This document shows, piece after piece, positions 14,780-62,587 of a DNA stretch of 64,000 nt; the stretch's first letter is position 1; each line of letters begins with the position of its first letter. The notes under the pieces were generated by a model. It was not told where the DNA came from and made no database searches. It saw nothing but the letters and a program-made list of their open reading frames with translations. The DNA comes from a virus (Duplodnaviria > Caudoviricetes): the IMG/VR virus record IMGVR_UViG_3300046820_001270, positions 64,001-128,000 of that record; one strand, 5' to 3'. The translations under genes and the position numbers were made by a program.

Positions 14780-15022
14780 TTATGCTCTTTGTCCTCCGTT
14801 TATTCTTCCCGTTAATATATTTATTACTTCGTTGTCAATTTCTTCCACAATTTGTTCCGACATTAATCTTGTTAATTCTGCCTCAGCATCAATTGAGTAA
14901 ACAGTATTTAAATCATCAACCAACTCAGGTCTCCATTGAGCACGTAGTGTTCTAACGATATTCTGAATACCTTCCGATTGAATTGTTATCCCATGAAAAA
15001 ATCTAAACTCTCTAACTCCCAT
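14780..15022 (-). CDS. small protein: FRFFHG tag + fragment resembling T4 gp23-type major capsid protein
   Basis: Start moved to ATG 15022. RTLRAQWRPELVDDL...SIDAEAELTRLMSEQIVEEIDNEVI matches my recollection of gp23 R-x-LKA-x-W/Y-x-x-ELAQDL...DAEAEL...EI-x-x-EI-x-x-E. Confidence 0.7.
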   Translation of the reverse strand: MGVREFRFFHGITIQSEGIQNIVRTLRAQWRPELVDDLNTVYSIDAEAELTRLMSEQIVEEIDNEVINILTGRINGGQRA

Positions 15023-15023
15023 A

Positions 15024-15254
15024 TTATTCTCTTTCTCTTGCGAATAATTTAAATACTCTACCATTATCATTAAATGTCATTTCAGTATTACTCGTTGGAC
15101 TTAAACGAATACTACAATCATTTGGACCATGGGCAAAAACGACTGGTTCGTCATCACCAAATTGAAAACAAAATTCAACATTTGATGGTTCAAATGAGAC
15201 CGGAGTAAAACATAATGTAGGTGTTTCATCACCTTTAAAAAATTTGAAGTTCAT
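15024..15254 (-). CDS. hypothetical protein with N-terminal FKFFKG tag
   Basis: MNFKFFKG start; abuts neighbouring genes. Confidence 0.75.
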   Translation of the reverse strand: MNFKFFKGDETPTLCFTPVSFEPSNVEFCFQFGDDEPVVFAHGPNDCSIRLSPTSNTEMTFNDNGRVFKLFARERE

Positions 15255-16516
15255 TATTTAACTTTATTTAATTTAGGTAATATTAATTTAGTTTGTTGTG
15301 GAGCAGGTTGTACAACAACTAAGTATGGTTTTAAAATTTCTTGAAAACGTTCTTTCATTTTTTCTAAAGAAAAGTTTTCTGAGTTCTGATCTTTTAATAA
15401 AATACTATTTGATGAAAATCTTGAATAATCATCTCTAACTAATTTCATTACTTCCACTACTTCATTATAATTTGCGGTGAACCACTTAGATCCTTTAATT
15501 ATGAATTGATCAATTGCACTATCATCAACATCGGTTAATTTACCACCAATCATAATACTTTTATCTGTCGGTAAAAAATCTTTTTGTCCTGACCAATTGG
15601 ACGCAATTACTGGTTTACCTGACATTGTGAATTCCAATAACGGTCTACCAAATCCCTCACCTTTAGTAATTGATATCATTGACTTAATCTTTTTATGATT
15701 ATATAAATCATTCATTTCTTTATTTGTTAAATCACCAAACAATAAATAAATAGATGGAGGGTTAGGTGTCTCACCGACTATATCTTTAATTCTTTTAATA
15801 AACACCTCACGTTCTTTAATTGAGAAACTTGATGATGATGTTTTTAAAACTAAAGCGGGAGATTTTTCATCGTCTTTAAATGCTTCAACGAAACACTTAA
15901 TTAACATACCAATATCTTTTCTATCTTGACCTACGTTTCCCTTTAACCAATGACCAACAAATAAAAATGCGAAGTCTTCTTTAACATTTAATTTAAATTT
16001 AGGATTAATAGTATCGTTATAGATTTTAGTATCAACACCTTCAAATAACACTTCAATTGGTTTTGTTATTTTATATTGATTAGTTAATTCATTTGTTGTT
16101 TTATTTCTTTCATCATAAACTGTCGATAATAAAACATTTTTAGAAAAATTGGAAGTGGCAATTATTAAATCCATTTGATTACAACCGTCTATCCAATCCT
16201 TAGGTGCTACAGTTGTTTCAATTCCTGCGGTGATACCAATATTAAACTTACCATATCTTTTAAATTCATTCGGTACGGTTACTTGTATATAGATATCAGG
16301 TAAACCGTCAAATTTAGATACAATATTACTTTCAATCCATTTGTGGAATATGTTATCAGACTCTAATGCTGTCATTGGAGTATTTCCCCACATACAACTA
16401 TCAATCTTAATATCAAATAAATTCATTTGATAAAGTGCTTCTAATAAATCTCTTGAGTGTGAACCATATCCACTTCTTGTTTTAACTGGTCCTCTAAATA
16501 ATATTGTTGGTTTCAT
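15254..16516 (-). CDS. GT4 glycosyltransferase
   Basis: SGYG, GEGFGRPLLEF, NWSG; similar to N-terminal domain of 4708-7710. Confidence 0.85.
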   Translation of the reverse strand: MKPTILFRGPVKTRSGYGSHSRDLLEALYQMNLFDIKIDSCMWGNTPMTALESDNIFHKWIESNIVSKFDGLPDIYIQVTVPNEFKRYGKFNIGITAGIETTVAPKDWIDGCNQMDLIIATSNFSKNVLLSTVYDERNKTTNELTNQYKITKPIEVLFEGVDTKIYNDTINPKFKLNVKEDFAFLFVGHWLKGNVGQDRKDIGMLIKCFVEAFKDDEKSPALVLKTSSSSFSIKEREVFIKRIKDIVGETPNPPSIYLLFGDLTNKEMNDLYNHKKIKSMISITKGEGFGRPLLEFTMSGKPVIASNWSGQKDFLPTDKSIMIGGKLTDVDDSAIDQFIIKGSKWFTANYNEVVEVMKLVRDDYSRFSSNSILLKDQNSENFSLEKMKERFQEILKPYLVVVQPAPQQTKLILPKLNKVK

Positions 16517-17886
16517 TAAATTACTTTATATAAATTAAATCTTTCACGTGGTGTAAAATTCTTTATTGTTTTTTCTATTCCTTCACTCATAGAGTCACAC
16601 ATAACTTTTGACGATAAGTTATTGATTGCCCACTCTCTTCCTACTTGACCATTCTCTTTTCTTTTTTCTTTACCTAACAAATACATTTCATTAATTGCAT
16701 TAGCAACTTCATTATTATTAACTCTATCATCATAGATATACGGTGTCAATGGAGATCCGTTTATGTTTGTTGCTGCCGGCCATACAGGTTTAACCCACAC
16801 ACCATGATCTGGTTTAACAAGTGAATTACTTAAAGTTTCGATAACAATGTATTGGTCGGGAGTTAAAAATTTACCATCATACCCAAACCCACATTGGTCT
16901 TGTAAACCACCTGTTACACTTACAATGATGGGTGTTCCCGCCATCATACTTTCCGCCGTACCTAAACCAAATCCTTCATTATTTGCAATGTTAATCGTAC
17001 AATCGGCAATGTTATATAGTTTATTTAAGAGATCATTTTCAATTTTGGTCGTTGAAAAAACGATATCATAATTTGGACATACCTTATCTTTAACAGCGTA
17101 TAAGTCTGTACCATTATTATCGATAGGAGCGGTGTGCATAACCAATACACACTTTTTAGATTGTTCTTTACTTAATTTATCACAGAATAATTTAAATGAT
17201 TCTATAACGTCCGCAGGTTGTTTTCTACGAATATTTCTGTTATTAAAAAATAAAACAAAATCGTATTCTTTACCCTCAAATAAATCCTTTTTAACTTGAG
17301 TTAATTCTTTTTCATCTAATGGTTTAAAAATATTTTCATTAATACCGTGAGGAACATAACTAATTTGCCAATCTTCCAATGGTTTACGAATACCATCTTC
17401 AATCTTACCAACACGATTAACAATACCGTATGTCAATTTAGAAATACAACCTAACCAATCACAACTTTCATAGTAATCTTTATTGTATAATGGATCGGGT
17501 ACGTTATCCCAAATGTGATAATATAAAATTGGGACTTGTTGTCTTATCTCATGTTCAGAATCATATAACCATTGCCAATAGTGAGGATCAGTAAAATGTA
17601 AGATAGCATCTATTTTCATTTCGCTTAATATTTTCCTCAACATTACAATATCACCATATGAATTATATGGTATAATTTTTAATTCGGCATCAGGAACACC
17701 AGTTTTTTCTCTAATATCAGTATCAACATCCACAAATTTACCAGCTTCATTATGATTAATACCCGCACCTAATTGAACCCAATTAAAACGATCAACGGTA
17801 CCCATCACAAACTCTCTTGACATTGTGGCGATACCCGATGTCATTCGTAAATCGTCTGATAGTAATAATATTCTTGGTTTACCCAT
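16516..17886 (-). CDS. GT4 glycosyltransferase
   Basis: Start moved to ATG 17886; TSGIA, NRNIRRK, NEGFGLGTAESMMAGTP. Confidence 0.85.
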   Translation of the reverse strand: MGKPRILLLSDDLRMTSGIATMSREFVMGTVDRFNWVQLGAGINHNEAGKFVDVDTDIREKTGVPDAELKIIPYNSYGDIVMLRKILSEMKIDAILHFTDPHYWQWLYDSEHEIRQQVPILYYHIWDNVPDPLYNKDYYESCDWLGCISKLTYGIVNRVGKIEDGIRKPLEDWQISYVPHGINENIFKPLDEKELTQVKKDLFEGKEYDFVLFFNNRNIRRKQPADVIESFKLFCDKLSKEQSKKCVLVMHTAPIDNNGTDLYAVKDKVCPNYDIVFSTTKIENDLLNKLYNIADCTINIANNEGFGLGTAESMMAGTPIIVSVTGGLQDQCGFGYDGKFLTPDQYIVIETLSNSLVKPDHGVWVKPVWPAATNINGSPLTPYIYDDRVNNNEVANAINEMYLLGKEKRKENGQVGREWAINNLSSKVMCDSMSEGIEKTIKNFTPRERFNLYKVI

Positions 17887-17887
17887 A

Positions 17888-18085: not shown

Positions 18086-18120
18086 ATTCAATTATATATT
18101 TAGATATATATTACTAAATT

Positions 18121-19465: not shown

Positions 19466-19497
19466 TTTGGAATTATCAAAATATATCATTATATTTG
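19466..19497 (+). promoter_or_regulatory. Bacteroidota-type housekeeping promoter
   Basis: TTTG 19466-19469, 20-nt spacer, TATATTTG 19490-19497, ATG 19502. Confidence 0.75.
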
Positions 19498-35362: not shown

Positions 35363-35393
35363 TTTGTATATTCAAAAACATTTCATATCTTTG
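35363..35393 (+). promoter_or_regulatory. Bacteroidota-type promoter
   Basis: TTTG 35363-35366, 19-nt spacer, TATCTTTG 35386-35393. Confidence 0.75.
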
Positions 35394-35398: not shown

Positions 35399-35812
35399 AT
35401 GAATATATTACTAATAATTTTTATAATATTGGTTTGGGTAACCTCATCTGTATATGTGATGTATTATCATAATAAACATTACACATTAGGTTTGGATATG
35501 GTAATAGGTGCAATATTGTTAGGTCCAATATTGGCTTTAATAGTAGGAAAGGATGTTGAAGAGAAGAAGAAATATTATGGGGTAATGGAACAGGAGAGTA
35601 ATAATAGACATAGAGGATGGTTTAGAACAATGGGGGAAATTAATAGACAACGAATGACAAGTTTTGGTAGATCCATTCCACCTCCACCACCGATATCACG
35701 AATTGCCCAAGCACAATCAGAGAGAGATGAAGCAGTTAGGTCGGCAATAGAAAGAATAGATAAAAATAAATTAAAAGACTTCAAATTTTTGAGGAGTAAT
35801 GTTAAAGATTGA
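35399..35812 (+). CDS. membrane protein with C-terminal FKFLRS tag
   Basis: Two TM segments, PPPPP stretch, ends KDFKFLRSNVKD. Confidence 0.75.
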   Translation: MNILLIIFIILVWVTSSVYVMYYHNKHYTLGLDMVIGAILLGPILALIVGKDVEEKKKYYGVMEQESNNRHRGWFRTMGEINRQRMTSFGRSIPPPPPISRIAQAQSERDEAVRSAIERIDKNKLKDFKFLRSNVKD

Positions 35813-37452: not shown

Positions 37453-37484
37453 TTTGATATTCTAAAATATATTTTATATCTTTG
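37453..37484 (+). promoter_or_regulatory. Bacteroidota-type promoter
   Basis: TTTG 37453-37456, 20-nt spacer, TATCTTTG 37477-37484. Confidence 0.75.
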
Positions 37485-40440: not shown

Positions 40441-40686
40441 ATGAAGGTTATTTTAACAGAAAGTCAATATACTCGTTTAATTGAAACCCAAAGTGAGGGT
40501 GAATGGGATAGTCAAAAGTTATATGAAAGGGAAAAAGTGGTTAAATTACTTAAAAAAGGACCTAAATACATAAGGGAATATATTAAAAAATTACCTCATA
40601 TTGAGGTACAAAATGACGAGGGAGACGTTAAAATAGCTACTCGTATACCTCAAACCATCCATCAATATTTATTTGGGAATTTCTAA
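40441..40686 (+). CDS. small probable virion-internal protein
   Basis: MKVILTESQYTRLIE N-terminus. Confidence 0.75.
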   Translation: MKVILTESQYTRLIETQSEGEWDSQKLYEREKVVKLLKKGPKYIREYIKKLPHIEVQNDEGDVKIATRIPQTIHQYLFGNF

Positions 40687-40702: not shown

Positions 40703-40734
40703 TTTGGAATATTCAAAAACCCCCCATATCTTTG
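40703..40734 (+). promoter_or_regulatory. Bacteroidota-type promoter
   Basis: TTTG 40703-40706, 20-nt spacer, TATCTTTG 40727-40734. Confidence 0.75.
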
Positions 40735-43018: not shown

Positions 43019-43019
43019 T

Positions 43020-43250
43020 ATGAATAGATACAACTGTTTATTAATTTTACCTGAAGGTACTAAAGATATAACAATATTAGCGGATACGGTACATCCTGAT
43101 TCGACATGTGCAACAAGATTTCAAAAAAAAGTTGAGGTAATAGGTCTTTATGGGACACCTGAAACATCTTTTCAATTAGTGAGTCAATATCCAACAGATA
43201 AATTTGTTATTGAATCTATTGATTACAATGTAATAGATAACGATGAATAA
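43020..43250 (+). CDS. hypothetical protein
   Basis: 76-aa ORF in operon. Confidence 0.65.
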   Translation: MNRYNCLLILPEGTKDITILADTVHPDSTCATRFQKKVEVIGLYGTPETSFQLVSQYPTDKFVIESIDYNVIDNDE

Positions 43251-44640: not shown

Positions 44641-44987
44641 TGGATTATAGTAAAATATTTTTAGGTGTTATATTTGGACTAATGGGTCAAGTTGGGACAT
44701 TTATACAATTACAGGGATCATATAAGTACGGTTGGTATGAAAAATACACATGGATGGTCATATTGGCAAGTGTCCCACTTGGTTGGTTATATATTAAATC
44801 CGTAAATTATTTCATTGCAGGGTTCGGTGGTCAGATATGGCCAAGTCGTCTACTTGGATTTTCAGTGGGGATTATAGTTTTTACACTAATGAGCCATTAT
44901 CTATTTAAAGAACCGTTAGATCTTAAAAACGGAATTTGTCTATTATTAGGGTTTAGTATATTAATGATCCAGTTATTTGTTAAATAG
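44640..44987 (+). CDS. small multi-pass membrane protein (DMT/SMR-like)
   Basis: Four hydrophobic helices, FKEPL before last helix. Confidence 0.65.
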   Translation: MDYSKIFLGVIFGLMGQVGTFIQLQGSYKYGWYEKYTWMVILASVPLGWLYIKSVNYFIAGFGGQIWPSRLLGFSVGIIVFTLMSHYLFKEPLDLKNGICLLLGFSILMIQLFVK

Positions 44988-45032
44988 CCGTAAAAATATC
45001 TAAAATTTATGATACATATCGTAGAATTAGAA

Positions 45033-45039
45033 TATTTAT
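45033..45039 (+). promoter_or_regulatory. putative late-promoter motif TATTTAT
   Basis: Upstream of ATG 45044. Confidence 0.5.
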
Positions 45040-45043
45040 GTTT

Positions 45044-47977: not shown

Positions 47978-48023
47978 TAGGTAGATAAATAAATAAATAA
48001 AACAAATTAAATAAAAATAAAAG

Positions 48024-48302
48024 ATGCAATATAATATTAAAATAACCGTAACTAAGGGGTTAGTTGATGTTGAAAAAAGAACTAAAGTAAAAACTATAGA
48101 TAAATTTTTGGTTAATAAGGATTTCCCAAATGTGGCAACAGTTAAAGAAATCAAAGATTTCGGAAAAACAATTCAAATCAAAAATTACACTGACGAGGAG
48201 ATTAACGGAGCGGTTCTAATGTTAGAAGATAAAGTGGCAATTGACGATAATGAATCAGTTAAACAACACGCCAACATCAATTACGTTATTAACTTAAAAT
48301 AA
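48024..48302 (+). CDS. hypothetical protein
   Basis: 92-aa ORF followed by terminator. Confidence 0.7.
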   Translation: MQYNIKITVTKGLVDVEKRTKVKTIDKFLVNKDFPNVATVKEIKDFGKTIQIKNYTDEEINGAVLMLEDKVAIDDNESVKQHANINYVINLK

Positions 48303-48848: not shown

Positions 48849-49211
48849 ATGAAAACATTTTTATTTTTCCGCGGATTCGTAGAGAGTCCTTTATTGGATA
48901 TTGATTGGGAAGAAATCAATAGAAGAATGAATACCAATATAATACCAATAACGACATATCCAACTTGGACAGGGACGACTTATACTCCGACATGGGTTGT
49001 AAATCCGGGTTATATTACGTATACACAACCAAATTATTTAGCAACAACCGGTACATTTATAAATCCATATAATAATACCACAACAACTGCAACTAGTTTT
49101 AGTTTGACAACATCAAACCCAAATGGAATAACATATACCACAACAAGAAATGCAGGAACTTTAACAACAGGAACAGATTTATATTCAAGTAGTAGTTTTA
49201 AATTACAATAA
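48849..49211 (+). CDS. Thr-rich low-complexity protein with N-terminal FLFFRG tag
   Basis: MKTFLFFRG start; T/Y/P-rich tail. Confidence 0.7.
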   Translation: MKTFLFFRGFVESPLLDIDWEEINRRMNTNIIPITTYPTWTGTTYTPTWVVNPGYITYTQPNYLATTGTFINPYNNTTTTATSFSLTTSNPNGITYTTTRNAGTLTTGTDLYSSSSFKLQ

Positions 49212-50039
49212 ATGAAAAAAATAATTAATTTTACACCAACAGGTACTCAAACTACTCGTGAAAATTCATATGCACCATTATTACCAAATGAAATAATTGA
49301 AGAGGTTCATGAGGCAAATGAATTAGGTATTTCGATTGTTCATTTACACGCAAGAGATGAAGAAACATTAAAGAATACATATAAGAAAGAAGTTTACACT
49401 AAAATTATCGAGGGAATAAAAAAACATTGTCCTGAATTATTAATTTGTGTTTCATTAACAGGTAGAAACTTTCCTGAGTTAGAAAAAAGAACTGAGGTTC
49501 TACAACTACATCCCGATATGGGATCATTAACGATGTCATCATTAAACTTCCCAACAGGTGCGTCGGTTAATGAACCAAATATGATTTTATCATTAATTAA
49601 TGAAATGGAAAAGTATGGAGTTAATCCTGAGATAGAATGTTTTGATTCTGGTATGTTAAACTATACAAATTATTTAATATCAAAAAACATATTAAAAGGT
49701 CCACATTACATCAATGTGATATTGGGGAACATATACAATTCACAATCTGATATTCATACAATTGCATCAATTAAATCTTCATTACCTAAAAACTCTAAAG
49801 TTTGTTTTGGTGGTATTGGTTCGCAACAATTGAGAAGTAATGTTTATGGGTTACTTGAAGCAGATGGAGTTAGAATTGGTTTAGAAGATAACTTATATTA
49901 TAAAGATAAAGAGAAGGCAACCAACACACAATTATTAAAAAGAATTCATAACATTATGAATGACATGGAATTAGAAATTTTATCATCAAAAGAATTAAGA
50001 GATTTAGGATATGGAAACAAAAATATTAGTATTAGGTAA
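49212..50039 (+). CDS. beta-keto acid cleavage enzyme (BKACE/Kce, DUF849 family)
   Basis: TPTG, IVHLHARD, EIECFDSG, RIGLEDN. Confidence 0.9.
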   Translation: MKKIINFTPTGTQTTRENSYAPLLPNEIIEEVHEANELGISIVHLHARDEETLKNTYKKEVYTKIIEGIKKHCPELLICVSLTGRNFPELEKRTEVLQLHPDMGSLTMSSLNFPTGASVNEPNMILSLINEMEKYGVNPEIECFDSGMLNYTNYLISKNILKGPHYINVILGNIYNSQSDIHTIASIKSSLPKNSKVCFGGIGSQQLRSNVYGLLEADGVRIGLEDNLYYKDKEKATNTQLLKRIHNIMNDMELEILSSKELRDLGYGNKNISIR

Positions 50040-50682
50040 GGGAGATAATGTTATCACAATGATATTAGATAATCTATATTCTTACTCTATAGATAGATTA
50101 TTATATTTTGGTAAAGATATTGTTGTGTATAATAATTTAGATTTACCAATTTTAAATTCATTTGACCATGGCAAATTCAATATAGAAGTTTTAAATGAGG
50201 TTAATGTAGATGACTTTAATTTATATATATTAGGAATTTACCAACCTAAAAATAAAATTAAAATTATAGAATCGTTAAATCCTGATAAAAATAAATTCAT
50301 TAATGTTATTCATAAAGGAGAAGATATTTCATATACAAGTACACTTGGTTATGGATTATTAATTAATTCTAAAGTATCAATTGCAGCACATACGACAATC
50401 GGTAATTTTGTTTCAATAAACAGACATGTATCAATCGGTCATCACACAACTATCGGAGACTTCACCTCAATAAATCCAGGTGTCAATATTGCCGGTAATG
50501 TAACTATAGGTAAAGGTTGTCAAATAGGTATCGGTGCAAACATACTTGACGGAATCACAATAGGAGATAACACGGTAATAGGTGCGGGTTCATTAGTCAC
50601 CAAAGACATTCCAAATAATGTGGTTGCCTATGGTAGCCCTTGTAAAATAATAAATCATCAATATGAAACACAATCCATATAA
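50011..50682 (+). CDS. PglD/NeuD-like hexapeptide-repeat acetyltransferase
   Basis: IGHHTTIG, IGIGA, IGAGSLVTKDIP, GSPCK. Confidence 0.9.
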   Translation: METKILVLGKGDNVITMILDNLYSYSIDRLLYFGKDIVVYNNLDLPILNSFDHGKFNIEVLNEVNVDDFNLYILGIYQPKNKIKIIESLNPDKNKFINVIHKGEDISYTSTLGYGLLINSKVSIAAHTTIGNFVSINRHVSIGHHTTIGDFTSINPGVNIAGNVTIGKGCQIGIGANILDGITIGDNTVIGAGSLVTKDIPNNVVAYGSPCKIINHQYETQSI

Positions 50683-51259
50683 AATAGTTGAAATGTTTGA
50701 GGAGGAGATTGCGGAATATACTGGATCCCCTTACGCAATTGCGTTAGATAATTGTACTGATGCATTATTTCTGTGTTGTGTATATTCAAAGGTAACAGAA
50801 GTAACTATTCCTAAAAAAACGTATCTATCGGTACCACAAGCGATTATGTCTTCAGGTGGTAAAGTAATATTTGAGGATACGGAATGGAAAGGTCTTTATG
50901 AGTTAAAACCATATAAGATATATGATTCGGCAAGAAGATTTACAAGTGGTATGTACATACCAAATAGTTTTATGTGTCTTTCTTTTCATCCTAAAAAAAT
51001 ATTACAAATGAGAAAAGGTGGTATGATATTGACAGATAATGAAGATGCTTATAAATGGTTTAAAAAGGCTAGACACGAGGGGAGAGATGAAATACCATAT
51101 ACACAAGATAATATTAAGTTTTTAGGTTGGAATATGTATATGACACCACCAGATGCTGCCGATGGATTATGGTTGATGTCATCAATGCCAAAACATAACG
51201 AGGATACAATTGAAAATTACCCTGACTTAACAAAAAATGATTTATTCAATAAATTTTAA
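50663..51259 (+). CDS. short DegT/DnrJ/EryC1/StrS PLP aminotransferase-like protein
   Basis: FEEEIAEY, NCTDAL, DSA, SFHPKK (PLP Lys), GGMILTD; only 198 aa. Confidence 0.8.
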   Translation: MKHNPYKIVEMFEEEIAEYTGSPYAIALDNCTDALFLCCVYSKVTEVTIPKKTYLSVPQAIMSSGGKVIFEDTEWKGLYELKPYKIYDSARRFTSGMYIPNSFMCLSFHPKKILQMRKGGMILTDNEDAYKWFKKARHEGRDEIPYTQDNIKFLGWNMYMTPPDAADGLWLMSSMPKHNEDTIENYPDLTKNDLFNKF

Positions 51260-52222
51260 ATGATGGAGGATTTAATACTTATAACCGCATATTGCGAAAC
51301 TGAAAAACAAGAAGAGGCATTAAATAGATGTATTGATTCGGTAAGTAAACTCGGATTTCACATTTTACTAATATCTCATTCACATATACCAACATACATA
51401 CAAAAAAAATGTAATTATTATTTTTACGATTATAATAATGACGTTAGTGAGGATCATAATTTATTAGGACATTTTACTTTTAACTTTGATAATAAAAAAA
51501 TAAATTCTAGATTCTTTATTAAAAAATTTTACGGGTTTGCAATATATAGAATGTTTTCAATTGCTAGTCAAATAGCCACAAATTTTGGATATGATAATCT
51601 ACATCATATTGAATATGATTGTGAATTGTTGGATGAAAATTTAATCTTTGAAAATAAAGAAAATCTTAAAAAGTATGATTCAGTAATTTGTACTGACACT
51701 GGCGATAAAAACGGGTGGTTATATGGTTCATTTAAGTCATTCAAAGTTAAATCATTACCAGATAAATTTAAAAATTACGACAGAGATTTTATTGAATCTG
51801 AAATGAAAAATTTAACTAAAACACATTTAGAATTTTTAACAAAAAAATTATTTATTGATGGAGGAAAAACTTTATTTAAAAATGAACCACCTAAGGATAA
51901 GTTTAAAAAGGGAAATATATCCGAACATAGGTATCTACATTTTACACTTTATTTTGACCCTGAAAATGGAACATTGAATATTTTTTATAATGCAATTAAC
52001 TTAAAAAAATCGGAAGAAATAACTGTAATTGTAAATAGAGAAAAGGTAATTAATTTAATAACAAAACCTGGATTTTGGACTACAAGAGAACTGGGTAATT
52101 TTAATCAAATAACACACGTCAGAGTGGATAATAATAAAAAAGTTATTTATGAAATTGCATTTGACGACGATTTTAGAGAAATATTCAAAATAAAATCATA
52201 TATTACCGATAATGATAAATAA
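51260..52222 (+). CDS. hypothetical protein, possibly GT-A-like
   Basis: LISH, YDYNN, HIEYD motif; end of sugar-modification operon. Confidence 0.6.
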   Translation: MMEDLILITAYCETEKQEEALNRCIDSVSKLGFHILLISHSHIPTYIQKKCNYYFYDYNNDVSEDHNLLGHFTFNFDNKKINSRFFIKKFYGFAIYRMFSIASQIATNFGYDNLHHIEYDCELLDENLIFENKENLKKYDSVICTDTGDKNGWLYGSFKSFKVKSLPDKFKNYDRDFIESEMKNLTKTHLEFLTKKLFIDGGKTLFKNEPPKDKFKKGNISEHRYLHFTLYFDPENGTLNIFYNAINLKKSEEITVIVNREKVINLITKPGFWTTRELGNFNQITHVRVDNNKKVIYEIAFDDDFREIFKIKSYITDNDK

Positions 52223-52724
52223 ATTCAAATTTTTCAGAGGGTATATTGGAACGTTAGATATAATGGACGGACAAACATATGCAACAGCATCGTTATATTA
52301 CCCAAGATTAGATTCCAATAATGAAATGGAAAGATATTATGCTGAACATTTCCGAAGTCCTACTTATGGATCTCATATGGAAATGATTAGAGAAAATAGA
52401 CGTTTTGAACAAATGCGTAATCATGGAAGGATTTCACATGAACAATACATGAGAAATAGAGATATGTTGATTGAACAAGAAAGAATAAGAAGATTAGGAA
52501 TGATAAATCATTCAAGAGAAACCGATGAACGAATTAGATTGTTTCAAGCAACAACAACCATAACGGTGAATCCAACACTATGGACTAAAGTTAAAATATT
52601 CGGAACACGAGTTAAATTATTCTTCAAAGAATGTTTTAGACAAGAACCAATTGGTTTAATTTTTGTGACTTTATTGAGTTGTCTGATAACATTCGTCGGG
52701 ATTGCAAAATTATTTGGAGCATGA
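52212..52724 (+). CDS. FKFFRG-tagged hypothetical protein with C-terminal TM
   Basis: MINKFKFFRG. Confidence 0.75.
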   Translation: MINKFKFFRGYIGTLDIMDGQTYATASLYYPRLDSNNEMERYYAEHFRSPTYGSHMEMIRENRRFEQMRNHGRISHEQYMRNRDMLIEQERIRRLGMINHSRETDERIRLFQATTTITVNPTLWTKVKIFGTRVKLFFKECFRQEPIGLIFVTLLSCLITFVGIAKLFGA

Positions 52725-52999
52725 TAGGAAAATTCAAATTTTTTAGTTCCAATGAAAAAATAACAATGAGATTTAGTCCTCATTGTTGTTATGACAATGC
52801 AAAATATATTCTTGAAAGTTTAATTAGTACTGATGAATGGGAAACAACAGTATTCCCAAAAGAATATCCACATGATCGAGGAACTTGGAGAATTCTTTAT
52901 ATTCAACAAAGAGAAAATAATTATCATTCTGTTGTTTGTTGGGTACCAAGAAATCCAGGATACATAACCGAAAGATTTTTAGTTAATATAGATTTATGA
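52721..52999 (+). CDS. FKFF-tagged hypothetical protein
   Basis: Start ATG 52721 (ATGA overlap), MIGKFKFFSS. Confidence 0.7.
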   Translation: MIGKFKFFSSNEKITMRFSPHCCYDNAKYILESLISTDEWETTVFPKEYPHDRGTWRILYIQQRENNYHSVVCWVPRNPGYITERFLVNIDL

Positions 53000-53331
53000 T
53001 TAGAAACTTTAAATTTTTAACGGATAATGATACCAATGAATTAGAATTCGGAGGATTTGTTCATGATCTTCATGACGGATTTGCAAGTTGGATGTGGACA
53101 GGAAGAGACTATTTAGATAGAGACCCAAATTGGGTGGAAGAAGTAATGACCACCACAAGTATTAGAACTTTTTTAATGAACTTTCCTGAACAAATGATAG
53201 TACCAATATTATCTATAACGGGAGATAATATAACGATGACAATAGATAATGACCACGATCCGTGGCCTTTTAATATATTAGGAGGAACACCACTTCGTAT
53301 AACCTTTTTAAGATGGATACCAGAAGTTTAA
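52996..53331 (+). CDS. FKFL-tagged hypothetical protein
   Basis: MIRNFKFLTD. Confidence 0.75.
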   Translation: MIRNFKFLTDNDTNELEFGGFVHDLHDGFASWMWTGRDYLDRDPNWVEEVMTTTSIRTFLMNFPEQMIVPILSITGDNITMTIDNDHDPWPFNILGGTPLRITFLRWIPEV

Positions 53332-53480: not shown

Positions 53481-54296
53481 ATGAGTGGATTAACAACAAT
53501 TAAATTAAGTAGTGAAGACCTTAAGAAAGAACAAGAACGCCAACGAAAAAGAGGTAGATTGATCTTTAATACCTTTAAAAAAGGTAAGGTTAAGGTTGTA
53601 ATTGGTCGATATGATGAAGACGGAACAGTTCCTGACATTATATTTCAATATCAAATACATGACGCACACTTTAGATCAATTGTAGATTACACTAACGGAG
53701 AAGTAATCTGTGTAATGGATTGTTATTATGATGATATAGATATTCTTAATGAAGACGGTAGTGAAATAACAGAAAAATTACCTCTTTGGTTAGTTTCGGA
53801 AATTGAGAACAAAATTGAAGATAAGTTTGGTGGTTTTAACATCGAACTCCGTTATATGCAACAATCAGACGGGAAAGGAAAGAAAAGTTTGGTTAATGAA
53901 GATGTAAGTGAACATCAGAAAATGATCAACAAGGTTAGGGTAATATATAAAGCACACAGAAACGGACATTATGATTTTAAGTACGGTCCTCAAAAAGACG
54001 AAATAAAACACGTAAGTTGGGTACTCCCACCTAAATTTAGTATTAAAATAAAAGAATATAGTCAAGAAGACAGTGAAAGATTTGGTTATGAAAATTACCC
54101 TATTTTGACGTTGAACACAGAAACTATTAATTTTATTACAGAAGACGGTAAACCTATTCAGAGTGGAGAGAAAATGGTCATTGGTTCAAAAATAACGAGT
54201 ATCTTTAAGAAACATAGAATAACCGTATATTGGACAGGAAATAAGAATACAACGGACGATTACACACAGATAGATATTACCCCAAAATCAAAATAA
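53481..54296 (+). CDS. repeat-domain family protein A (2 domain copies)
   Basis: RGRLIFNTFKKG and KVRVIYKAHRNG, linker LVNE. Confidence 0.8.
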   Translation: MSGLTTIKLSSEDLKKEQERQRKRGRLIFNTFKKGKVKVVIGRYDEDGTVPDIIFQYQIHDAHFRSIVDYTNGEVICVMDCYYDDIDILNEDGSEITEKLPLWLVSEIENKIEDKFGGFNIELRYMQQSDGKGKKSLVNEDVSEHQKMINKVRVIYKAHRNGHYDFKYGPQKDEIKHVSWVLPPKFSIKIKEYSQEDSERFGYENYPILTLNTETINFITEDGKPIQSGEKMVIGSKITSIFKKHRITVYWTGNKNTTDDYTQIDITPKSK

Positions 54297-54297: not shown

Positions 54298-54329
54298 TTT
54301 GGATATTCCAAATGGGGGTTGTATATTTG
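54298..54329 (+). promoter_or_regulatory. Bacteroidota-type promoter
   Basis: TTTG 54298-54301, 20-nt spacer, TATATTTG 54322-54329. Confidence 0.75.
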
Positions 54330-54861: not shown

Positions 54862-55587
54862 ATGAAGTTCATAGATTTAATAAAAGAAGACGAATATACA
54901 AGACAATACAAGAAAGCTCATACTATCTATAAAGCACTTAGAAAGGGTAAAGCAACTGTTTCGGTAAATGTAGCTTATACCGAAAGAAATGGAATTGAAT
55001 TACACACATTTGAATACATGTTACCAAAAGAGAATTATATAATAAATGTTACTAATTTGTATGGAAGTACCACGACACATATTCGTTGTGAAAAAATGGT
55101 AATAATCGGTAAAAAAATACCAATTATGGACACATTGATTATTGGTGCGGTTAGTAAAAGATTTTCAAAGGATTTTGGAATTGATTTAATTATTAATGAT
55201 GTTGAATATACTGAGGAAGGTGTTAGAAATGATGGTTTATTAAAAGAAGAACCAAACGAACGTGAATTGGAAATAGAAAAAGTTAAAACCAAAACAAAGA
55301 CTGTTTATAAGGCACTTAAAAAAGGAACTTTAAATGTTCGTTATGCACATGGACAACCGGATGTGAAATTTAAATATGAATTACCTGACGAATATAGAAT
55401 AAAAGTATTAGGGAGTACGACAGAAGGATTTAAATCATACATCAAATTAACATGTAATCATGTTAAAATTGAAACATTAGATGGTATTGAACGTGACGAC
55501 AACCAAAAATTTGGGATAGGTTTTCCGGCAATTAAACACAAATTCGGTTCTTTTGATATTGAAATGGATTGTCTTTTTGGTAGTTAA
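54862..55587 (+). CDS. repeat-domain family protein B (2 domain copies)
   Basis: Start ATG 54862 MKFIDLIKE; KAHTIYKALRKG, KTKTVYKALKKG, linker LLKE. Confidence 0.8.
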   Translation: MKFIDLIKEDEYTRQYKKAHTIYKALRKGKATVSVNVAYTERNGIELHTFEYMLPKENYIINVTNLYGSTTTHIRCEKMVIIGKKIPIMDTLIIGAVSKRFSKDFGIDLIINDVEYTEEGVRNDGLLKEEPNERELEIEKVKTKTKTVYKALKKGTLNVRYAHGQPDVKFKYELPDEYRIKVLGSTTEGFKSYIKLTCNHVKIETLDGIERDDNQKFGIGFPAIKHKFGSFDIEMDCLFGS

Positions 55588-55927: not shown

Positions 55928-57160
55928 TTATAATTTAACCCAAGTTCCGTTATGTTTTAAACGAAATTTTGTTGCTCTAAGAATAATGTTCAACCCAAAG
56001 TTGTTAAATTTTTTCTTAACAATATTAAGAATGTCCATTTTAATTGTTTGAATATTATTTAAATTTGGGTTTTCGTCACAGTTAATTTTAATTGATGGTA
56101 TTAAAACTTTGACATTGTAATTATTTTCAAATGGATCTGTCTCAACAATATATACATCACCTAAATCATAATCAAATGTGTATTTTTGTGGGTCAGTTGC
56201 ACCTCGATAAAATAATCTTATTGCATCAACCTCCATTGTTACCTTACCTTTCTTTAAAGCTTTAAAAACAGTTGGTGCTTTTTTAACAAGTGTTTCATGT
56301 TCGTTCTCATTCTCTTCTTTTACAATATGAGTTTCAGTATTTTTAAATGCATCTTTGTATTTGGTGAATATCATATCACAATTAGAATCAAAATTAATAA
56401 ATCTCATTTTAATTTTATGGCGAAACGATTCTAACAATTCAATTTGAACTGCACCATTTTTTGCTTTGAAATCGTATTCAATCTTTACATCTTCAATCGG
56501 AATAAAAAATGATACGGGTCGATTAAAAATGTTATTAAAATCTAATCTTATTCTAAATTTTTTTGGTAATTCGTAATCAGCAACAACCACAACCTGTTCT
56601 CCGTTATTAAATATTGGAGGTACTTTAACTTTAACTTTTCCTTTTCTAAAACTTTTGTAAACTAATTTGGACTTATTAATTATTCTTTGTTTTTCTTGTT
56701 CATCATCAACACTTTCATCAATCATATTTTCATATGCACTTGGAACGTTATGTTTTTTTCTAATACTAAATCTAATTTGTTCACCTTCGTCGAATGTACC
56801 CTTTAATGAATTATTAAATTTACGAGCAAGTTTTCTTAATATATCTTCTCTAATATCAATATCATCAGCAAGAGAAGGATATCTTTCACAGTTTATAGTT
56901 ATACCTGTTATTATCACTTCATAAGCTAACATTTGATTTCCTGACGTTAGATGATATGTGGTAGGTAGTTCATATGTGATAACAACATCTTTATCATCAA
57001 TTATTTCAAATCCAGTCCAAAATGGAACCATATCGGGGAGTAGATTACCAATCTTAAAACCACCTGTTCTTAGTGTCTTATACATAAGTTTAACCTTACG
57101 AGACACCTTACGGTAATCGTCACTTAACTCAGCTTCCCCCAAAATATCCACAAATTTCAT
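55928..57160 (-). CDS. repeat-domain family protein C (3 domain copies)
   Basis: MKFVDILGE; KVKLMYKTLRTG, KSKLVYKSFRKG, KAPTVFKALKKG; linkers MIDE, IVKE. Confidence 0.85.
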   Translation of the reverse strand: MKFVDILGEAELSDDYRKVSRKVKLMYKTLRTGGFKIGNLLPDMVPFWTGFEIIDDKDVVITYELPTTYHLTSGNQMLAYEVIITGITINCERYPSLADDIDIREDILRKLARKFNNSLKGTFDEGEQIRFSIRKKHNVPSAYENMIDESVDDEQEKQRIINKSKLVYKSFRKGKVKVKVPPIFNNGEQVVVVADYELPKKFRIRLDFNNIFNRPVSFFIPIEDVKIEYDFKAKNGAVQIELLESFRHKIKMRFINFDSNCDMIFTKYKDAFKNTETHIVKEENENEHETLVKKAPTVFKALKKGKVTMEVDAIRLFYRGATDPQKYTFDYDLGDVYIVETDPFENNYNVKVLIPSIKINCDENPNLNNIQTIKMDILNIVKKKFNNFGLNIILRATKFRLKHNGTWVKL

Positions 57161-57185: not shown

Positions 57186-57217
57186 TTTGGATATTATACT
57201 AAAAACTCTTATATTTG
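57186..57217 (+). promoter_or_regulatory. Bacteroidota-type promoter
   Basis: TTTG 57186-57189, 20-nt spacer, TATATTTG 57210-57217. Confidence 0.75.
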
Positions 57218-57235: not shown

Positions 57236-57544
57236 ATGGCAATTGCAAAGAAAGCGGCTAAGAAAGCTGTACCAAAAGTGGTGGAACAACCAAAACAAAT
57301 CGTTTTAACCCAAGATCAGTATGATCAATTGGTTGGTTTTAAATGGGAGGTTAATTCAATTTCACATGAAATTAAAAGTGTTGTGGTTGATGATGATAAG
57401 AATGTTAGAGAGATTTCTTTTGATCTTGGAACTTTACAAGTTAGACTTAATAAACTATATGATGATCTAACTAAAATATCTGATGATGTTGATCCAGACC
57501 CATACGTTTGGGAAGATGATGACAACGATGATGATAACAATTAA
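57236..57544 (+). CDS. hypothetical protein (basic N-terminus, acidic C-terminus)
   Basis: Start ATG 57236 MAIAKKAAKK. Confidence 0.75.
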   Translation: MAIAKKAAKKAVPKVVEQPKQIVLTQDQYDQLVGFKWEVNSISHEIKSVVVDDDKNVREISFDLGTLQVRLNKLYDDLTKISDDVDPDPYVWEDDDNDDDNN

Positions 57545-57547
57545 GTT

Positions 57548-57874
57548 ATGCGTGATTTCAAATTTCTTGCCAAAAACGATATATCAAGTTATAACGGACA
57601 AATGTCTCGTGAGGCTATTGACTATCTATATGATTATAACAATCGTGTAAGGAGTCATGAGAGGACCACAACGATTGCGACATATAAAATGGTGGATTAT
57701 ACCTATGGTGATGGTGATATTGTTGCAGGAACCGTCAATGCATATCCATTAAATGCTTCGAATATAAGAATCACTTTTAGAATAAGAAACGGAGAGATTA
57801 CATCACACACCATAGATATTGACTATTGGAATACGATGGGACAATTAGTAAATGCATTAAGGAGGGAAGATTAG
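57548..57874 (+). CDS. FKFL-tagged hypothetical protein
   Basis: MRDFKFLAK. Confidence 0.75.
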   Translation: MRDFKFLAKNDISSYNGQMSREAIDYLYDYNNRVRSHERTTTIATYKMVDYTYGDGDIVAGTVNAYPLNASNIRITFRIRNGEITSHTIDIDYWNTMGQLVNALRRED

Positions 57875-59214: not shown

Positions 59215-59235
59215 ATTATTAAAAAATAGAGATAT

Positions 59236-59266
59236 TTTGTATATTCACAAAGATATTGTATATTTG
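59236..59266 (+). promoter_or_regulatory. Bacteroidota-type promoter
   Basis: TTTG 59236-59239, 19-nt spacer, TATATTTG 59259-59266. Confidence 0.8.
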
Positions 59267-59268
59267 TT

Positions 59269-59817
59269 ATGATGAATCAATTATTCACTTTTTTCCACGG
59301 GATAACTAAGAAAAGTAGGGTTAATACTATTATCACTAATAATAGATTAAGAAGATTACCCAATAGTCAAGTGCCGACTTGTGAAGGATATGATACACCA
59401 GAACTTCGTAGTATATTCTTACAGGGGTGGAGAGCATGTGAAAGAGGTGAGGAAATATATAATAATCCATACGGTCATTTAGAAAATCTACTATATTCAC
59501 TACATAATGCGTGGGAAAGAGGTTATTTTGAATGTTATAACACAAGAAGAACTAATCCATATGTGGCACAAACGAGAGAATTTATTACTGATATGTTTCG
59601 TGATGCACAAACACACGGATTTTGTGCAGGAGTACAAAACACCCGATTAGAATTACATTATGAAGGGGACATGGATGAATTATCCGTTAGGTCGATGTTG
59701 GATGAGTTAATATATAGATATAGAACTTGTGTTTCATTTAGCGATTTTACATTAAATAATATGGAAGATTATTTAAATGAACATTTAAGTGGAACATCAA
59801 CAATAAGATTAGCATGA
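59269..59817 (+). CDS. FTFFHG-tagged protein: Rmf/CrpP-like module + shared C-terminal module
   Basis: QGWRA...NNPY...AWERGY; C-terminal 66 aa has 43 identities to 61713-62054 (hand alignment). Confidence 0.75.
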   Translation: MMNQLFTFFHGITKKSRVNTIITNNRLRRLPNSQVPTCEGYDTPELRSIFLQGWRACERGEEIYNNPYGHLENLLYSLHNAWERGYFECYNTRRTNPYVAQTREFITDMFRDAQTHGFCAGVQNTRLELHYEGDMDELSVRSMLDELIYRYRTCVSFSDFTLNNMEDYLNEHLSGTSTIRLA

Positions 59818-60275
59818 CCGATGCTCAAATAGTAATATCAGTAATTTTTGCTGTGATATTTTTCGTAATTCTTATCTTTAATGTGGTTTCATACCCAAAC
59901 GTGAAATTATATAAAAAGAAATATAATGAGTTGGAACGCGGTGTGTATAAATATGAACCAGCAGAACATAGCGAATCAAATTATTTTTATCTATACAGTT
60001 ATGATATTACTACCTTAACATTTACTCGCACCGATGTTAACATCATATTCTTTCTTGATGGTGATATAAAACTAACAGATAATTTATACATACACAAAAG
60101 TCATTTGTTTATGTCGTTTGTTAAATGGTATTATTGGAGAAAGTTTCAAAAGTTAAAAGATGAGTTGGTTGAGACATATAATATTAGAAATCAAAGAGGT
60201 CGTTATGAACAATCCCATCAGGAACGATATATGAAACAACAGAACAAATTAGATTTTAAATTTTTTAGAGGATGA
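59814..60275 (+). CDS. membrane-anchored protein with C-terminal FKFFRG tag
   Basis: N-terminal TM; ends KLDFKFFRG. Confidence 0.75.
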   Translation: MTDAQIVISVIFAVIFFVILIFNVVSYPNVKLYKKKYNELERGVYKYEPAEHSESNYFYLYSYDITTLTFTRTDVNIIFFLDGDIKLTDNLYIHKSHLFMSFVKWYYWRKFQKLKDELVETYNIRNQRGRYEQSHQERYMKQQNKLDFKFFRG

Positions 60276-60715
60276 TAAAACATTTCAAATTTTTTGAGGG
60301 TCCCGCAAAAAAACAAAGAGTGTTCACAGACTTCATGGATGCGTTGGATGACTATTTTCTCGGTGATATTCCATTAGCTACACACGTGCAAAGAGGACAA
60401 CGAAGAGAAGTACCAGGCCCACGACTTAAACCATTTACATTAAATTTGTTTGCGGAAGTGTTAGGTAGAATACCAACATTTTCAATGGCATTTGAATCAT
60501 CTGATCTTAATACTTATGAAACACTTCGTGGAACAACAATAGGACAATTAACAAGTGGTGAATTAGGTATTCCTTGGTGTTTCACGGAATTACATATAAC
60601 AAGAATATCCGATAATTCACACGTATCAATACATTATGATAATGTAGATGAGATGGATAGAAGAGGATTAATATTTGACCCACAAGATGCAGTAACAATC
60701 TGTTATAAACCGTAA
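60272..60715 (+). CDS. FKFFEG-tagged hypothetical protein
   Basis: MIKHFKFFEG. Confidence 0.75.
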   Translation: MIKHFKFFEGPAKKQRVFTDFMDALDDYFLGDIPLATHVQRGQRREVPGPRLKPFTLNLFAEVLGRIPTFSMAFESSDLNTYETLRGTTIGQLTSGELGIPWCFTELHITRISDNSHVSIHYDNVDEMDRRGLIFDPQDAVTICYKP

Positions 60716-60719
60716 TGAT

Positions 60720-61010
60720 ATGGCAAAAGAATTAAAAGTTCCTGGTGAATATCAAAGTAGAACACCAAGAAGTAAACAAAACATATTCCCAAAACAAAAA
60801 CAAACTATGAATAGAGAATACACCGAACAGGATTACAAAAACTATATGAAAGTAGTTGAACACGTTATTTGGGAAACCGAAGAAAAATTAAAGTCATATG
60901 AAAAAAATAAAAAAATATTCAGTTTAACATTTGAGCAGTGGGTTCAATGGCAAAACAATGTAATAAGTTTAGATGACATTAAAATAGATAGTGATGATAA
61001 AACCATTTAA
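60720..61010 (+). CDS. hypothetical protein
   Basis: 96-aa ORF in operon. Confidence 0.7.
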   Translation: MAKELKVPGEYQSRTPRSKQNIFPKQKQTMNREYTEQDYKNYMKVVEHVIWETEEKLKSYEKNKKIFSLTFEQWVQWQNNVISLDDIKIDSDDKTI

Positions 61011-61464
61011 ATTTTTTGAAGGTAGAATAAAAAGGTTGTATCATTATAACACTCCGTACATACCACTGCTACGAACTCCGCCAGGTAGTTATTACGATAG
61101 AACAATTAATCCAGATTTGTATGGTGGAGTAAGATTGAGTGAGTTATCAGATAGAGTTCAACAAATAGTGAGAAGTCCAGAATATATACCAGCAGGTTAT
61201 GTTCAAGTGCCAATAACAGAACAACAAAGATATAATAATATGGTTATTCGTTATGTCAGAAGTTTTATGAGAGGAAATACAAATTGGAGAGGATATGAAG
61301 AAGCTTGGATAGATGAAAGAAATGAATATGTAAGATTAAAGATATTGGGTGGTATTAATATCGGTGGGATGATGCATATTACTTATGAAATAACAACACA
61401 CCACACAACGTCACAAAGATATCGTGTAAGTGTCCCATTAGTTAATTTACAAAGAAGAGGATAA
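60994..61464 (+). CDS. FKFFEG-tagged hypothetical protein
   Basis: MIKPFKFFEGRIKRLYHY. Confidence 0.75.
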   Translation: MIKPFKFFEGRIKRLYHYNTPYIPLLRTPPGSYYDRTINPDLYGGVRLSELSDRVQQIVRSPEYIPAGYVQVPITEQQRYNNMVIRYVRSFMRGNTNWRGYEEAWIDERNEYVRLKILGGINIGGMMHITYEITTHHTTSQRYRVSVPLVNLQRRG

Positions 61465-61465
61465 T

Positions 61466-61729
61466 ATGGCAAAAGCAAGAAAGATTTTATCAAACACAAT
61501 AAGTGAATTGTTAAAAGAAACATCGTTGGAAACAAGAATTAAAATGTCGTGTTGGTTTATAATTAACAATCTTATTCATGAATCAGGCGCAAGAGAAGAA
61601 GCTGCGTGGGATGAAACAAATCCAAAAGACATTGAGATGATGAAACTATTGGATGATAAAACAAAAGAACTAACGGAAACAATATTAAGAAACATTAAAG
61701 AGTGGGAAGAAGATGGTAAACCAATTTAA
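61466..61729 (+). CDS. hypothetical protein
   Basis: 87-aa ORF ending WEEDGKPI. Confidence 0.7.
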   Translation: MAKARKILSNTISELLKETSLETRIKMSCWFIINNLIHESGAREEAAWDETNPKDIEMMKLLDDKTKELTETILRNIKEWEEDGKPI

Positions 61730-62054
61730 ATTTTTTGAGGGGAGACCAAAAAGATTATATCACTACGACCTATTGGTTGGAGGTATACCTGTTGAGGTAA
61801 TAACTTCAAACGAACCACCAACACATTTTTTTTCTAGTCCCACACAACATCTTGGTTTTTATGTGGGAGTTCAAAATACACAATTAGAATTAATTTACGA
61901 TGGTGACATGGACGAATTATCCGTTATGGCAATGGTAGATGAATTAAAATATAGATACGCAAATTATGTTTCAATAAATGAACAGGTAATTGGATTTATG
62001 GAAGATTTTTTAAATGAACATTTAGATGGAACATCCACAATAAGATACGCATGA
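61713..62054 (+). CDS. FKFFEG-tagged protein with shared C-terminal module
   Basis: MVNQFKFFEGRPKRLYHY; C-terminal module homologous to 59269-59817. Confidence 0.8.
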   Translation: MVNQFKFFEGRPKRLYHYDLLVGGIPVEVITSNEPPTHFFSSPTQHLGFYVGVQNTQLELIYDGDMDELSVMAMVDELKYRYANYVSINEQVIGFMEDFLNEHLDGTSTIRYA

Positions 62055-62587
62055 TGAAACCTTTTAAACTACTTAACGGATACACATATAGTGATGAGTA
62101 TACATTACCAGTACGAATAGATCCACCATATGGAATATCGAATCGTCATTGGAATATGTTGCCACAAGATTTAAGAGGTGGAGAACGAGAAGATATGTTA
62201 CTTTATATTGAAGGATGGGAAGCGTCGGCACGTGCTGATTACAATAATCCATATCCCGACCAACTAAGAGGTGAGGTGTGGAATAGAGGATGGCACGCGT
62301 GGTTTGAACGTCGTAATGGAGAAACACATACTGAAAGGGATATGGAACACTATCACGCAGATAGAGAATTTTTCAATAGAAGAACAAGAGTGTATACTGA
62401 AAGGGATATGGAATACTATCACACAGAAGAGTTTTTGTTCTTTGATGTGTCCGAAGAAAGATACGACCCTATTTGGCCGCAACCATATAAAGTTATGTTG
62501 TTTAGAAGTATTGAAGAAGGGAACACAGTGGAAGGACAAACAATTTATCCAGACCACTATATGTATAATTTTCCTGATGTAATTTAA
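62051..62587 (+). CDS. FKLLNG-tagged protein with Rmf/CrpP-like module and internal duplication
   Basis: EGWEA...NNPY...VWNRGW; TERDMExYH twice. Confidence 0.75.
   Translation: MMKPFKLLNGYTYSDEYTLPVRIDPPYGISNRHWNMLPQDLRGGEREDMLLYIEGWEASARADYNNPYPDQLRGEVWNRGWHAWFERRNGETHTERDMEHYHADREFFNRRTRVYTERDMEYYHTEEFLFFDVSEERYDPIWPQPYKVMLFRSIEEGNTVEGQTIYPDHYMYNFPDVI
62329..62427 (+). repeat. 33-bp direct repeat, 2 mismatches, 66-bp period
   Basis: tactgaaagggatatggaa(c/t)actatcac(g/a)caga at 62329 and 62395. Confidence 0.9.

Follow-up and report, generated by a model that had tools for sequence, protein, structure and literature searches.

A short terminal FKF[F/L] peptide shared by many unrelated small proteins of giant lake phages that infect Bacteroidota

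Numerous small proteins of a group of giant phages carry the same four-residue peptide, FKF[F/L] (the tag), close to one of their ends, and the tag is evidently maintained by selection at the level of its amino acids. The stretch analyzed here (the window) comprises 64,000 nucleotides of a virus of the Duplodnaviria (Caudoviricetes), positions 64,001 to 128,000 of IMG/VR record IMGVR_UViG_3300046820_001270, and was compared above all with G001, a 335,630-bp IMG/VR record rated complete, which was reached through a tagged-array protein matching IMG/VR contigs and is 75-97% identical to the window in nucleotide sequence. The best explanation of the tag, the chances of which we rate as about even, is that FKF[F/L] is a short linear tag that a single conserved partner in the cytoplasm recognizes, for docking or for degradation. 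An earlier note on this DNA had listed 14 tagged termini, and all 14 are present at the positions given below. The strict N-terminal form, F[KR]F[FL], is found in nine genes (15254-, 15022-, 52212, 52721, 52996, 57548, 60272, 60994 and 61713, named by their starts), and one-residue or conservative variants open 48849 (FLFF), 59269 (FTFF) and 62051 (FKLL). The tagged genes of the window are the following.

14780..15022 (-): 80 aa, starts MGVREFRFFHG; tag 14996-15007; behind it stands a piece of the major capsid protein.
15024..15254 (-): 76 aa, starts MNFKFFKG; tag codons 15237-15248; G001 ortholog 95% identical; in a glycosyltransferase operon, the head of which (18352-) bears a late-type motif.
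35399..35812 (+): C-terminally tagged predicted membrane protein, ends KDFKFLRSNVKD-stop; tag 35780-35791; two hydrophobic N-terminal segments (by eye); host-type promoter 6 nt upstream.
48849..49211 (+): 120 aa, starts MKTFLFFRG; variant FLFF at 48858-48869; Thr-rich tail; heads a sugar-modification operon; orthologs have FLFF or FVFF.
52212..52724 (+): 170 aa, starts MINKFKFFRG; tag 52224-52235; hydrophobic C-terminal segment, a predicted membrane tail-anchor (by eye).
52721..52999 (+): 92 aa, starts MIGKFKFFSS; tag 52733-52744.
52996..53331 (+): 111 aa, starts MIRNFKFLTD; tag 53008-53019, then an acidic linker of variable length, then a folded body (alignment A1).
57548..57874 (+): 108 aa, starts MRDFKFLAK; tag 57557-57568; in an operon headed by a host-type promoter at 57186-57217.
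59269..59817 (+): 182 aa, starts MMNQLFTFFHG; variant FTFF at 59284-59295; first gene of an array; has modules in common with 61713 and with G001 16740.
59814..60275 (+): C-terminally tagged protein, ends KLDFKFFRG-stop; tag 60255-60266; predicted N-terminal membrane anchor (by eye); ending kept in G001, L002, L004 and L142.
60272..60715 (+): 147 aa, starts MIKHFKFFEG; tag 60284-60295; absent from G001.
60994..61464 (+): 156 aa, starts MIKPFKFFEG; tag 61006-61017.
61713..62054 (+): 113 aa, starts MVNQFKFFEG; tag 61725-61736; relatives in five IMG/VR contigs.
62051..62587 (+): 178 aa, starts MMKPFKLLNG; variant FKLL at 62063-62074.

The motif is strongly concentrated at protein starts. In the simple gene set used to count enrichment in the window, residues 2-7 make up 3.2% of positions, and 8 of the 13 matches to the strict motif lie there (binomial p 1.3e-9); in G001, 17 of 26 matches do so (p 1.3e-21). 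Shuffling residues 2-13 of every protein gave a mean of 0.2 carriers (maximum 3) in the window, versus 8 observed, and a mean of 0.55 (maximum 4) in G001, versus 17 observed. The earlier note had said that termini no richer in the motif than shuffled AT-rich ORFs would refute its reading, but shuffled proteins yield far fewer carriers, and AT-rich composition therefore does not explain the pattern. FKFF is also the top-ranked four-residue word at N-termini, both in the window and in G001, when all such words are counted without bias, and internal copies of the motif occur at about the frequency expected from composition by our own estimate. The bodies behind the tag are diverse: the carriers of the window and G001 fall into 22 groups unrelated by BLASTP, and a clade-wide pool of 139 distinct carriers falls, with the tag removed, into 38 single-linkage BLASTP groups, which bears out the claim that the bodies are otherwise unrelated. 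Conversely, among 174 open reading frames (ORFs) homologous to tagged bodies, the strict tag is kept by 154 and a one-residue variant by 7; most of the 13 others are truncated, have a non-ATG start or an FVFF variant, or are the capsid protein itself.

The conservation concerns the peptide rather than the DNA that encodes it. The window has 9 copies of the string TTYAAATTTTT where 3.1 are expected, and every copy reads FKF[FL] in a real ORF, whereas the copies of G001 outside arrays are antisense, intergenic or out of frame and occur at about the control rate. The string is thus above background only in frame, and not regardless of frame as the earlier note had held would speak against a peptide. 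Codon choice tells the same story. Phe codons of the tag are TTT or TTC in ratios of 99/40 and 92/41 and its Lys codons AAA or AAG in a ratio of 108/27, which matches the usage of the genome (TTC 20% of Phe, AAG 20% of Lys), and six different codons spell the F or L at the fourth position. Within families defined by their bodies, codons for the same residue differ at 26.5% of tag F and 23.6% of tag K, versus 24.9% and 22.2% at conserved F and K of the bodies, so no nucleotide constraint beyond the amino acid is apparent at the tag. Synonymous variation had been taken in the earlier note as a sign of selection on the peptide, and these equal rates agree with it. A DNA or RNA site was rejected on the evidence from frame and synonymous positions.

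The consensus of the tag is M-(I)-[K/R]-[P/D/E]-F-K-F-[F/L]-x-[G/K], with the first Phe at residue 3-6 and the tag within six residues of the protein end. Its second position tolerates R, N, V, L and T, and its three hydrophobic positions are nearly invariant. Persistence at a distance is best seen in the family of 52996, for which a profile search of a 1.8-billion-protein library returned 68 representatives at <=50% mutual identity: 53 have the strict tag, and most of the others are fragments or have one-residue variants (FNFL, FIFL, FDFF, WKFF). One distant member of this family lies on a 1.3-kb contig with four adjacent tagged genes; another lies on a 32-kb contig with four more tagged genes dispersed among untagged ones, and this contig encodes yet another C-terminally tagged protein whose N-terminal segment is hydrophobic. 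Within the 52996 family, a stretch of roughly 8 to 40 residues, acidic for the most part, separates the tag from the first conserved body motif. AlphaFold2 gave a predicted local distance difference test score (pLDDT) of <50 for residues 1-26 of the 52996 protein and of 82-89 for its body, and again <50 for residues 1-28 of a second carrier family; in both families modeled, then, the tag is predicted to sit on a disordered tail. In the family of 52212 (alignment A2), F5, K6, F7 and F8 are invariant and the hydrophobic C-terminal segment is kept, which places the tag at the N-terminus and a predicted tail-anchor at the C-terminus. C-terminal tags, 1-6 residues from the end, are found on at least six families, most of them with a hydrophobic N-terminal segment as predicted anchor. 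Membrane-anchored carriers are thus predicted to bear the tag at the end opposite the anchor, and the charges flanking the hydrophobic segments suggest that the tagged end faces the cytoplasm.

Carriers are fast-evolving accessory proteins of 70-190 aa, and two families have predicted folded bodies. Scans with Pfam and PHROGs returned only the capsid fragment and weak matches. The capsid fragment noted earlier was confirmed: the 15022 protein matches Pfam Gp23 (E 4.8e-12) and has 49% identity with residues 349-405 of the capsid protein that the relative itself encodes. A carrier family of G001 (12980-13453; L006) has a conserved N-terminal capsid segment (RR..A.D.V.VQ), which may be the counterpart of the T4 Gol region, a region that binds EF-Tu (PMC3014915). 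The Rmf-like modules described in the earlier note did not hold up well, the likeness being weak (Pfam RMF E = 0.86). For the 52996-family body, nothing above noise was found in PDB Foldseek, the VIA wide search or the ESM Atlas. Two large proteins, P0053 (1443 aa) and P0058 (928 aa), match the middle of this body 11 and 7 times, respectively, and the body may be derived from, or similar to, a repeat domain of large proteins. A leader peptide of the kind found in ribosomally synthesized and post-translationally modified peptides was considered and rejected, given the carriers' size, the predicted folded bodies and the lack of a common neighboring enzyme across arrays.

The tag bearers are a clade of uncultured giant lake phages infecting Bacteroidota. 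The window is 28-37% G+C and densely coding, has no tRNA gene and contains tail-fibre, glycosyltransferase and sugar-modification genes. G001 encodes a T4-type (gp23-type) major capsid protein and a gp21-type prohead protease. It also has a gene for ribosomal protein bS21 (122155-122346 (-); L012:8155-8346; Pfam E 7e-12), which stands in the head module in reverse orientation, with the portal gene on one side and the prohead-protease gene on the other. Such an arrangement is the hallmark of the freshwater Bacteroidetes phages that encode bS21 (Chen et al., 2022; PMC9723584) and places the phage in the clades described there. Near-identical DNA is present in lake metagenomes of 19 studies. A megablast search of cultured phages with the window gave no match, and the closest cultured relative is Flavobacterium phage immuto, at 40% capsid-protein identity.

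An exact-pattern scan followed by ORF checks found tag arrays in about 17 IMG/VR contigs, the densest with 12 tagged genes in 5.8 kb, 12 in 10 kb and 15 in 15 kb. G001 has about 26 carriers, mostly in one block that runs beyond the end of the window, and carriers amount to about 5-6% of the genes of these jumbo phages. The tag is unchanged among phages of 75-100% capsid-protein identity, and this invariance fits a conserved partner. Relatives without arrays, at about 75% capsid identity, have only one or two tagged genes, and the DNA string is not enriched in three relatives of 250-290 kb at about the same identity. Tags in cultured immuto are not above background, and relative G002 has no homolog of any tagged body except the capsid protein. 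In a scan of bacterial and archaeal genomes, the 120 loci returned with the same DNA string are all chance-like single matches without arrays. None of the phage's housekeeping, structural or replication proteins is tagged. A full-text search for FKFF together with phage gave no paper, in line with the earlier note, which knew of no description, and the genome paper on the clade does not mention the tag (PMC9723584). The principle of a shared terminal tag is already familiar from T4 capsid-targeting sequences, clamp-binding motifs and degradation tags; no description of the FKF[F/L] motif itself was found.

Gene content changes at the tags. Homology between the window and G001 extends through the tag that ends 59814 and on through the start codon and opening tag of the gene behind it, and breaks off right after that second tag. 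From there to the following tag, at 61006, the window has two genes, 60272 and 60720, that are missing from G001. At the 35780 junction it is G001 that has one more tagged gene, and here too the difference starts directly after the tag. Different carriers also have modules in common, in differing orders. The roughly 25-nt tag-coding repeat evidently marks the breakpoints at which relatives acquire, lose and exchange bodies. These phages thus offer a model of gene turnover in which an invariant tag is kept while effector bodies change at it. A related strain, known from an RNA-library contig, lacks 49217-52220, with its junction 4 nt before the 52212 tag; this 3-kb block holds BKACE, acetyltransferase and aminotransferase genes and a gene for a 320-aa protein.

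No tagged gene stands directly behind the late motif, TATTTAT[AT]. Head, tail-fibre and related genes have this motif 5-31 nt ahead of their starts, and it is found within 45 nt of 0/31 tagged genes (window and G001) versus 17% of all G001 genes. Three units with tagged genes (35399, 57236 and 59269) are headed instead by matches to TTTG-N19-20-TAnnTTTG, which we take to be the consensus of the Bacteroidota housekeeping promoter and which end 3-19 nt before the starts.

35363..35393 (+): Bacteroidota-type promoter match, heads 35399.
57186..57217 (+): Bacteroidota-type promoter match, heads the 57236-57874 operon.
59236..59266 (+): Bacteroidota-type promoter match (TTTG-N19-TAnnTTTG), 3 nt before the ATG of the 59269-62587 array.

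These three units contain 8/14 window carriers. The statement that most carriers lie under host-type promoters thus stands for those eight, but two others are in an operon with a late-type head and four in an operon without a recognised promoter (48849-53331). In all, the window has seven matches to TTTG-N19-20-TAnnTTTG that lie 3-19 nt before a start codon, namely, 19466-19497, 35363-35393, 37453-37484, 40703-40734, 54298-54329, 57186-57217 and 59236-59266. Given these distances, the mRNA leaders would be very short or absent.

Two other N-terminal leaders are shared among proteins of the same phages, MK[L/F]xD[I/L][I/L]xE and [ILV]3-[S/T]-E-x-Q-[L/Y]. Both contain [I/L/V]-x-E, presumably the site of the T4 prohead protease, and both are candidates for T4-like leaders that target proteins to the capsid and are cleaved by the protease. 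The second class is enlarged to at least 12 genes in G002. Genes with these leaders lie at the following positions.

Window 40441-40686, 54862-55587 and 55928-57160 (-): capsid-leader genes.
G001 15550, 18951, 21498, 42494-48152 and 59156: capsid-leader genes.

A late motif stands within 45 nt of 13/14 capsid-leader genes. The residue after the FKF[F/L] core is Glu in only 10/139 tags, so that no protease site is fixed there, and the tag forms a third class apart from the two capsid-leader classes.

These leaders bear directly on the proposal that the tag itself is a capsid-targeting signal like that of T4 internal proteins, by which carriers would be loaded into the prohead and injected with the DNA. 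In its favor are the T4-like nature of the phage (capsid protein of the gp23 type, prohead protease of the gp21 type) and the capsid-protein fragments in two carriers; moreover, the internal proteins of T-even phages are a diverse set with only the capsid-targeting sequence in common (PMC3012670). The resemblance extends to form, both signals being short N-terminal peptides of about 10 residues that are the sole common part of diverse, fast-changing small proteins in a T4-like phage. In T-even phages, the shared coding sequence of the targeting signal also coincides with variable gene content. Unlike that signal, however, the FKFF tag has neither a conserved protease site nor (by motif alone) late promoters before its genes, and it is found at C-termini as well and on some carriers with predicted membrane anchors; several of its units are headed by host-type promoters, and the phage has capsid-targeting-like leaders of its own besides the tag, which end in [I/L/V]-x-E behind the late motif. 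On this balance, a capsid-targeting role has a slim chance of being right. Encapsulin cargo-loading peptides offer a related comparison, since a short terminal peptide on a flexible linker brings unrelated cargo to a shell of the HK97 fold. The tag shares the terminal position, the flexible linker and the unrelated cargo, but its timing speaks against a shell as the destination, and some carriers have predicted membrane anchors. Amphipathic ends of the MinD, FtsA and MreB type target proteins to the membrane, and a tag of this type would hold its carriers at the inner membrane face; its composition of aromatic residues and Lys, the use of either terminus and the tolerance of F-to-L changes are in keeping with this. 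Yet a core of four residues with three near-invariant is more than lipid binding would demand, neither AlphaFold2 model has a helix there (in a region of low confidence), and proteins already predicted to be anchored are tagged as well, which leaves membrane targeting about as improbable as the capsid route. Binding to the sliding clamp, with carriers competing for or riding on the DNA clamp of host or phage, is the least probable of the alternatives weighed. Clamp-binding motifs are short hydrophobic motifs on disordered N- or C-terminal tails of many proteins, and one pocket of the clamp serves many unrelated clients (PMC11139829). Like the client motifs of beta-clamp and PCNA, the tag is a linear motif of 5-6 residues with hydrophobic anchors on disordered terminal tails. 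The canonical motif, however, is Q-aliphatic-x-[L/M]-[F/L] (PMC11139829), and in the tag Gln precedes the core in 11/139 cases (8%), position 1 is always Phe, position 3 is Phe in 133/139 and position 4 is F or L, so that Phe occupies the aliphatic and [L/M] places. The carriers are accessory proteins rather than replication or repair enzymes, no replication protein of the phage is tagged, internal copies are not above chance, and Pfam PF02916, PF09116 and PF02768 detect no clamp gene in G001. The canonical clamp-binding motif, given as a parallel in the earlier note, does not fit, and neither does its other parallel, the ClpS-type N-degron, which needs an aromatic residue at position 1, whereas the tag as encoded has its Phe at residue 3-6 and occurs near C-termini also.

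Two alternatives remain. In the first, the shared start would have no function as a peptide; it would be left over from the way in which these genes arise and shuffle, by duplicating and recombining at one 5' cassette whose copies gene conversion keeps similar. The exact breaks after tags in the insertions and deletions between the window and G001, the tandem arrays with their shared modules, and the C-terminal tags that stand directly before an N-terminally tagged gene are all as such a cassette would leave them. Gene conversion would, however, equalise nucleotides, and it is counted against by the synonymous sites of the tag, which differ as much as elsewhere and follow the codon usage of the genome; the tag also persists in families at <=50% identity while the adjoining linker changes in length and sequence, and C-terminal tags occur away from tagged neighbors too. 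We consider this explanation improbable. Slightly more improbable is an element acting in translation, in which the nascent peptide or its A/U-rich mRNA would adjust initiation, the first steps of elongation or the coupling of stop to start where mRNAs lack a Shine-Dalgarno sequence or leader. Promoter matches that end 3-6 nt from the ATG, and hence very short leaders, would suit such an element, as would the frequent overlap of tagged genes with the previous stop as ATGA and the bS21 encoded by the clade (PMC9723584). Untagged genes of the same arrays overlap in the same way, though, and the absence of added nucleotide constraint, the conservative F-to-L changes at non-wobble bases and the variable distance of C-terminal tags from the stop (1-6 residues) all speak against it.

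A docking or degradation tag with a single reader accommodates these observations best. One conserved cytoplasmic partner, either a host hub or a core phage protein, would hold the exposed tail by its three aromatic or hydrophobic side chains and handle all carriers as one class, gathering them at one place or feeding them to an energy-dependent protease; in the protease variant, the functions of the carriers would be switched off on schedule. Recruitment to one place is possible, if doubtful, and degradation more doubtful still. The free end, the long unstructured tail and the mixture of soluble and predicted-anchored carriers fit both variants. The terminal and modular character of the motif, its predicted flexible tail and its many unrelated bodies uphold that part of the earlier note's docking or addressing tag, whereas docking or addressing itself is what we infer from them. 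Tags recognized by AAA+ proteases (ssrA, the N- and C-terminal motifs of ClpX substrates, and the initiation tails of FtsH and Lon) are terminal, occur at either end and lie on unstructured tails. FKFF resembles them in all three respects and in being borne by soluble carriers as well as by those with predicted membrane anchors, although its sequence matches no degron class known to us, and we know of no phage that marks some 25 of its own proteins with a degradation tag.

Several points weigh against a single reader. No partner of the tag was found, and no phage gene tracks the tag arrays; a search for the partner by presence and absence across relatives was dropped because relatives without arrays still have one or two tagged genes. 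Both AlphaFold2 models come from shallow alignments of 7-8 rows, and the anchors and their topology were read by eye from hydrophobic segments and flanking charges. The evidence on expression consists of promoter motifs and of short related-strain contigs from one RNA library that possibly contains DNA, and the placement of 15254- and 15022- in a glycosyltransferase operon headed by a late motif means that non-late expression is not universal.

A wider proposal, which we put forward tentatively and hold to be somewhat short of an even chance, is that the phage has an address system of its own, in which one host or phage reader would treat about 25 fast-evolving, non-late effectors per genome as one class and decide where they go or how long they last, and the tag-coding repeat would serve at the same time as the joint for new bodies. 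Together with the two capsid-leader classes, such a system would mean that a large share of the phage proteome is sorted by terminal peptides. Should a single reader prove to serve every carrier, its identification would tell what dozens of orphan families in abundant freshwater Bacteroidota phages do, or at least where they act. The tag could also serve to steer or destabilise proteins in Bacteroidota.

A further feature of the window lies among its late genes. Three of them (53481-54296, 54862-55587 and 55928-57160 (-)) consist of two or three copies of a module of ~120 aa. The modules have acidic linkers after LVNE, LLKE, MIDE or IVKE, and each begins with [Y/F]-K-x-[L/F]-[R/K]-x-G. Judged by their sequences, these module-repeat late genes look like polyproteins cut by a protease.

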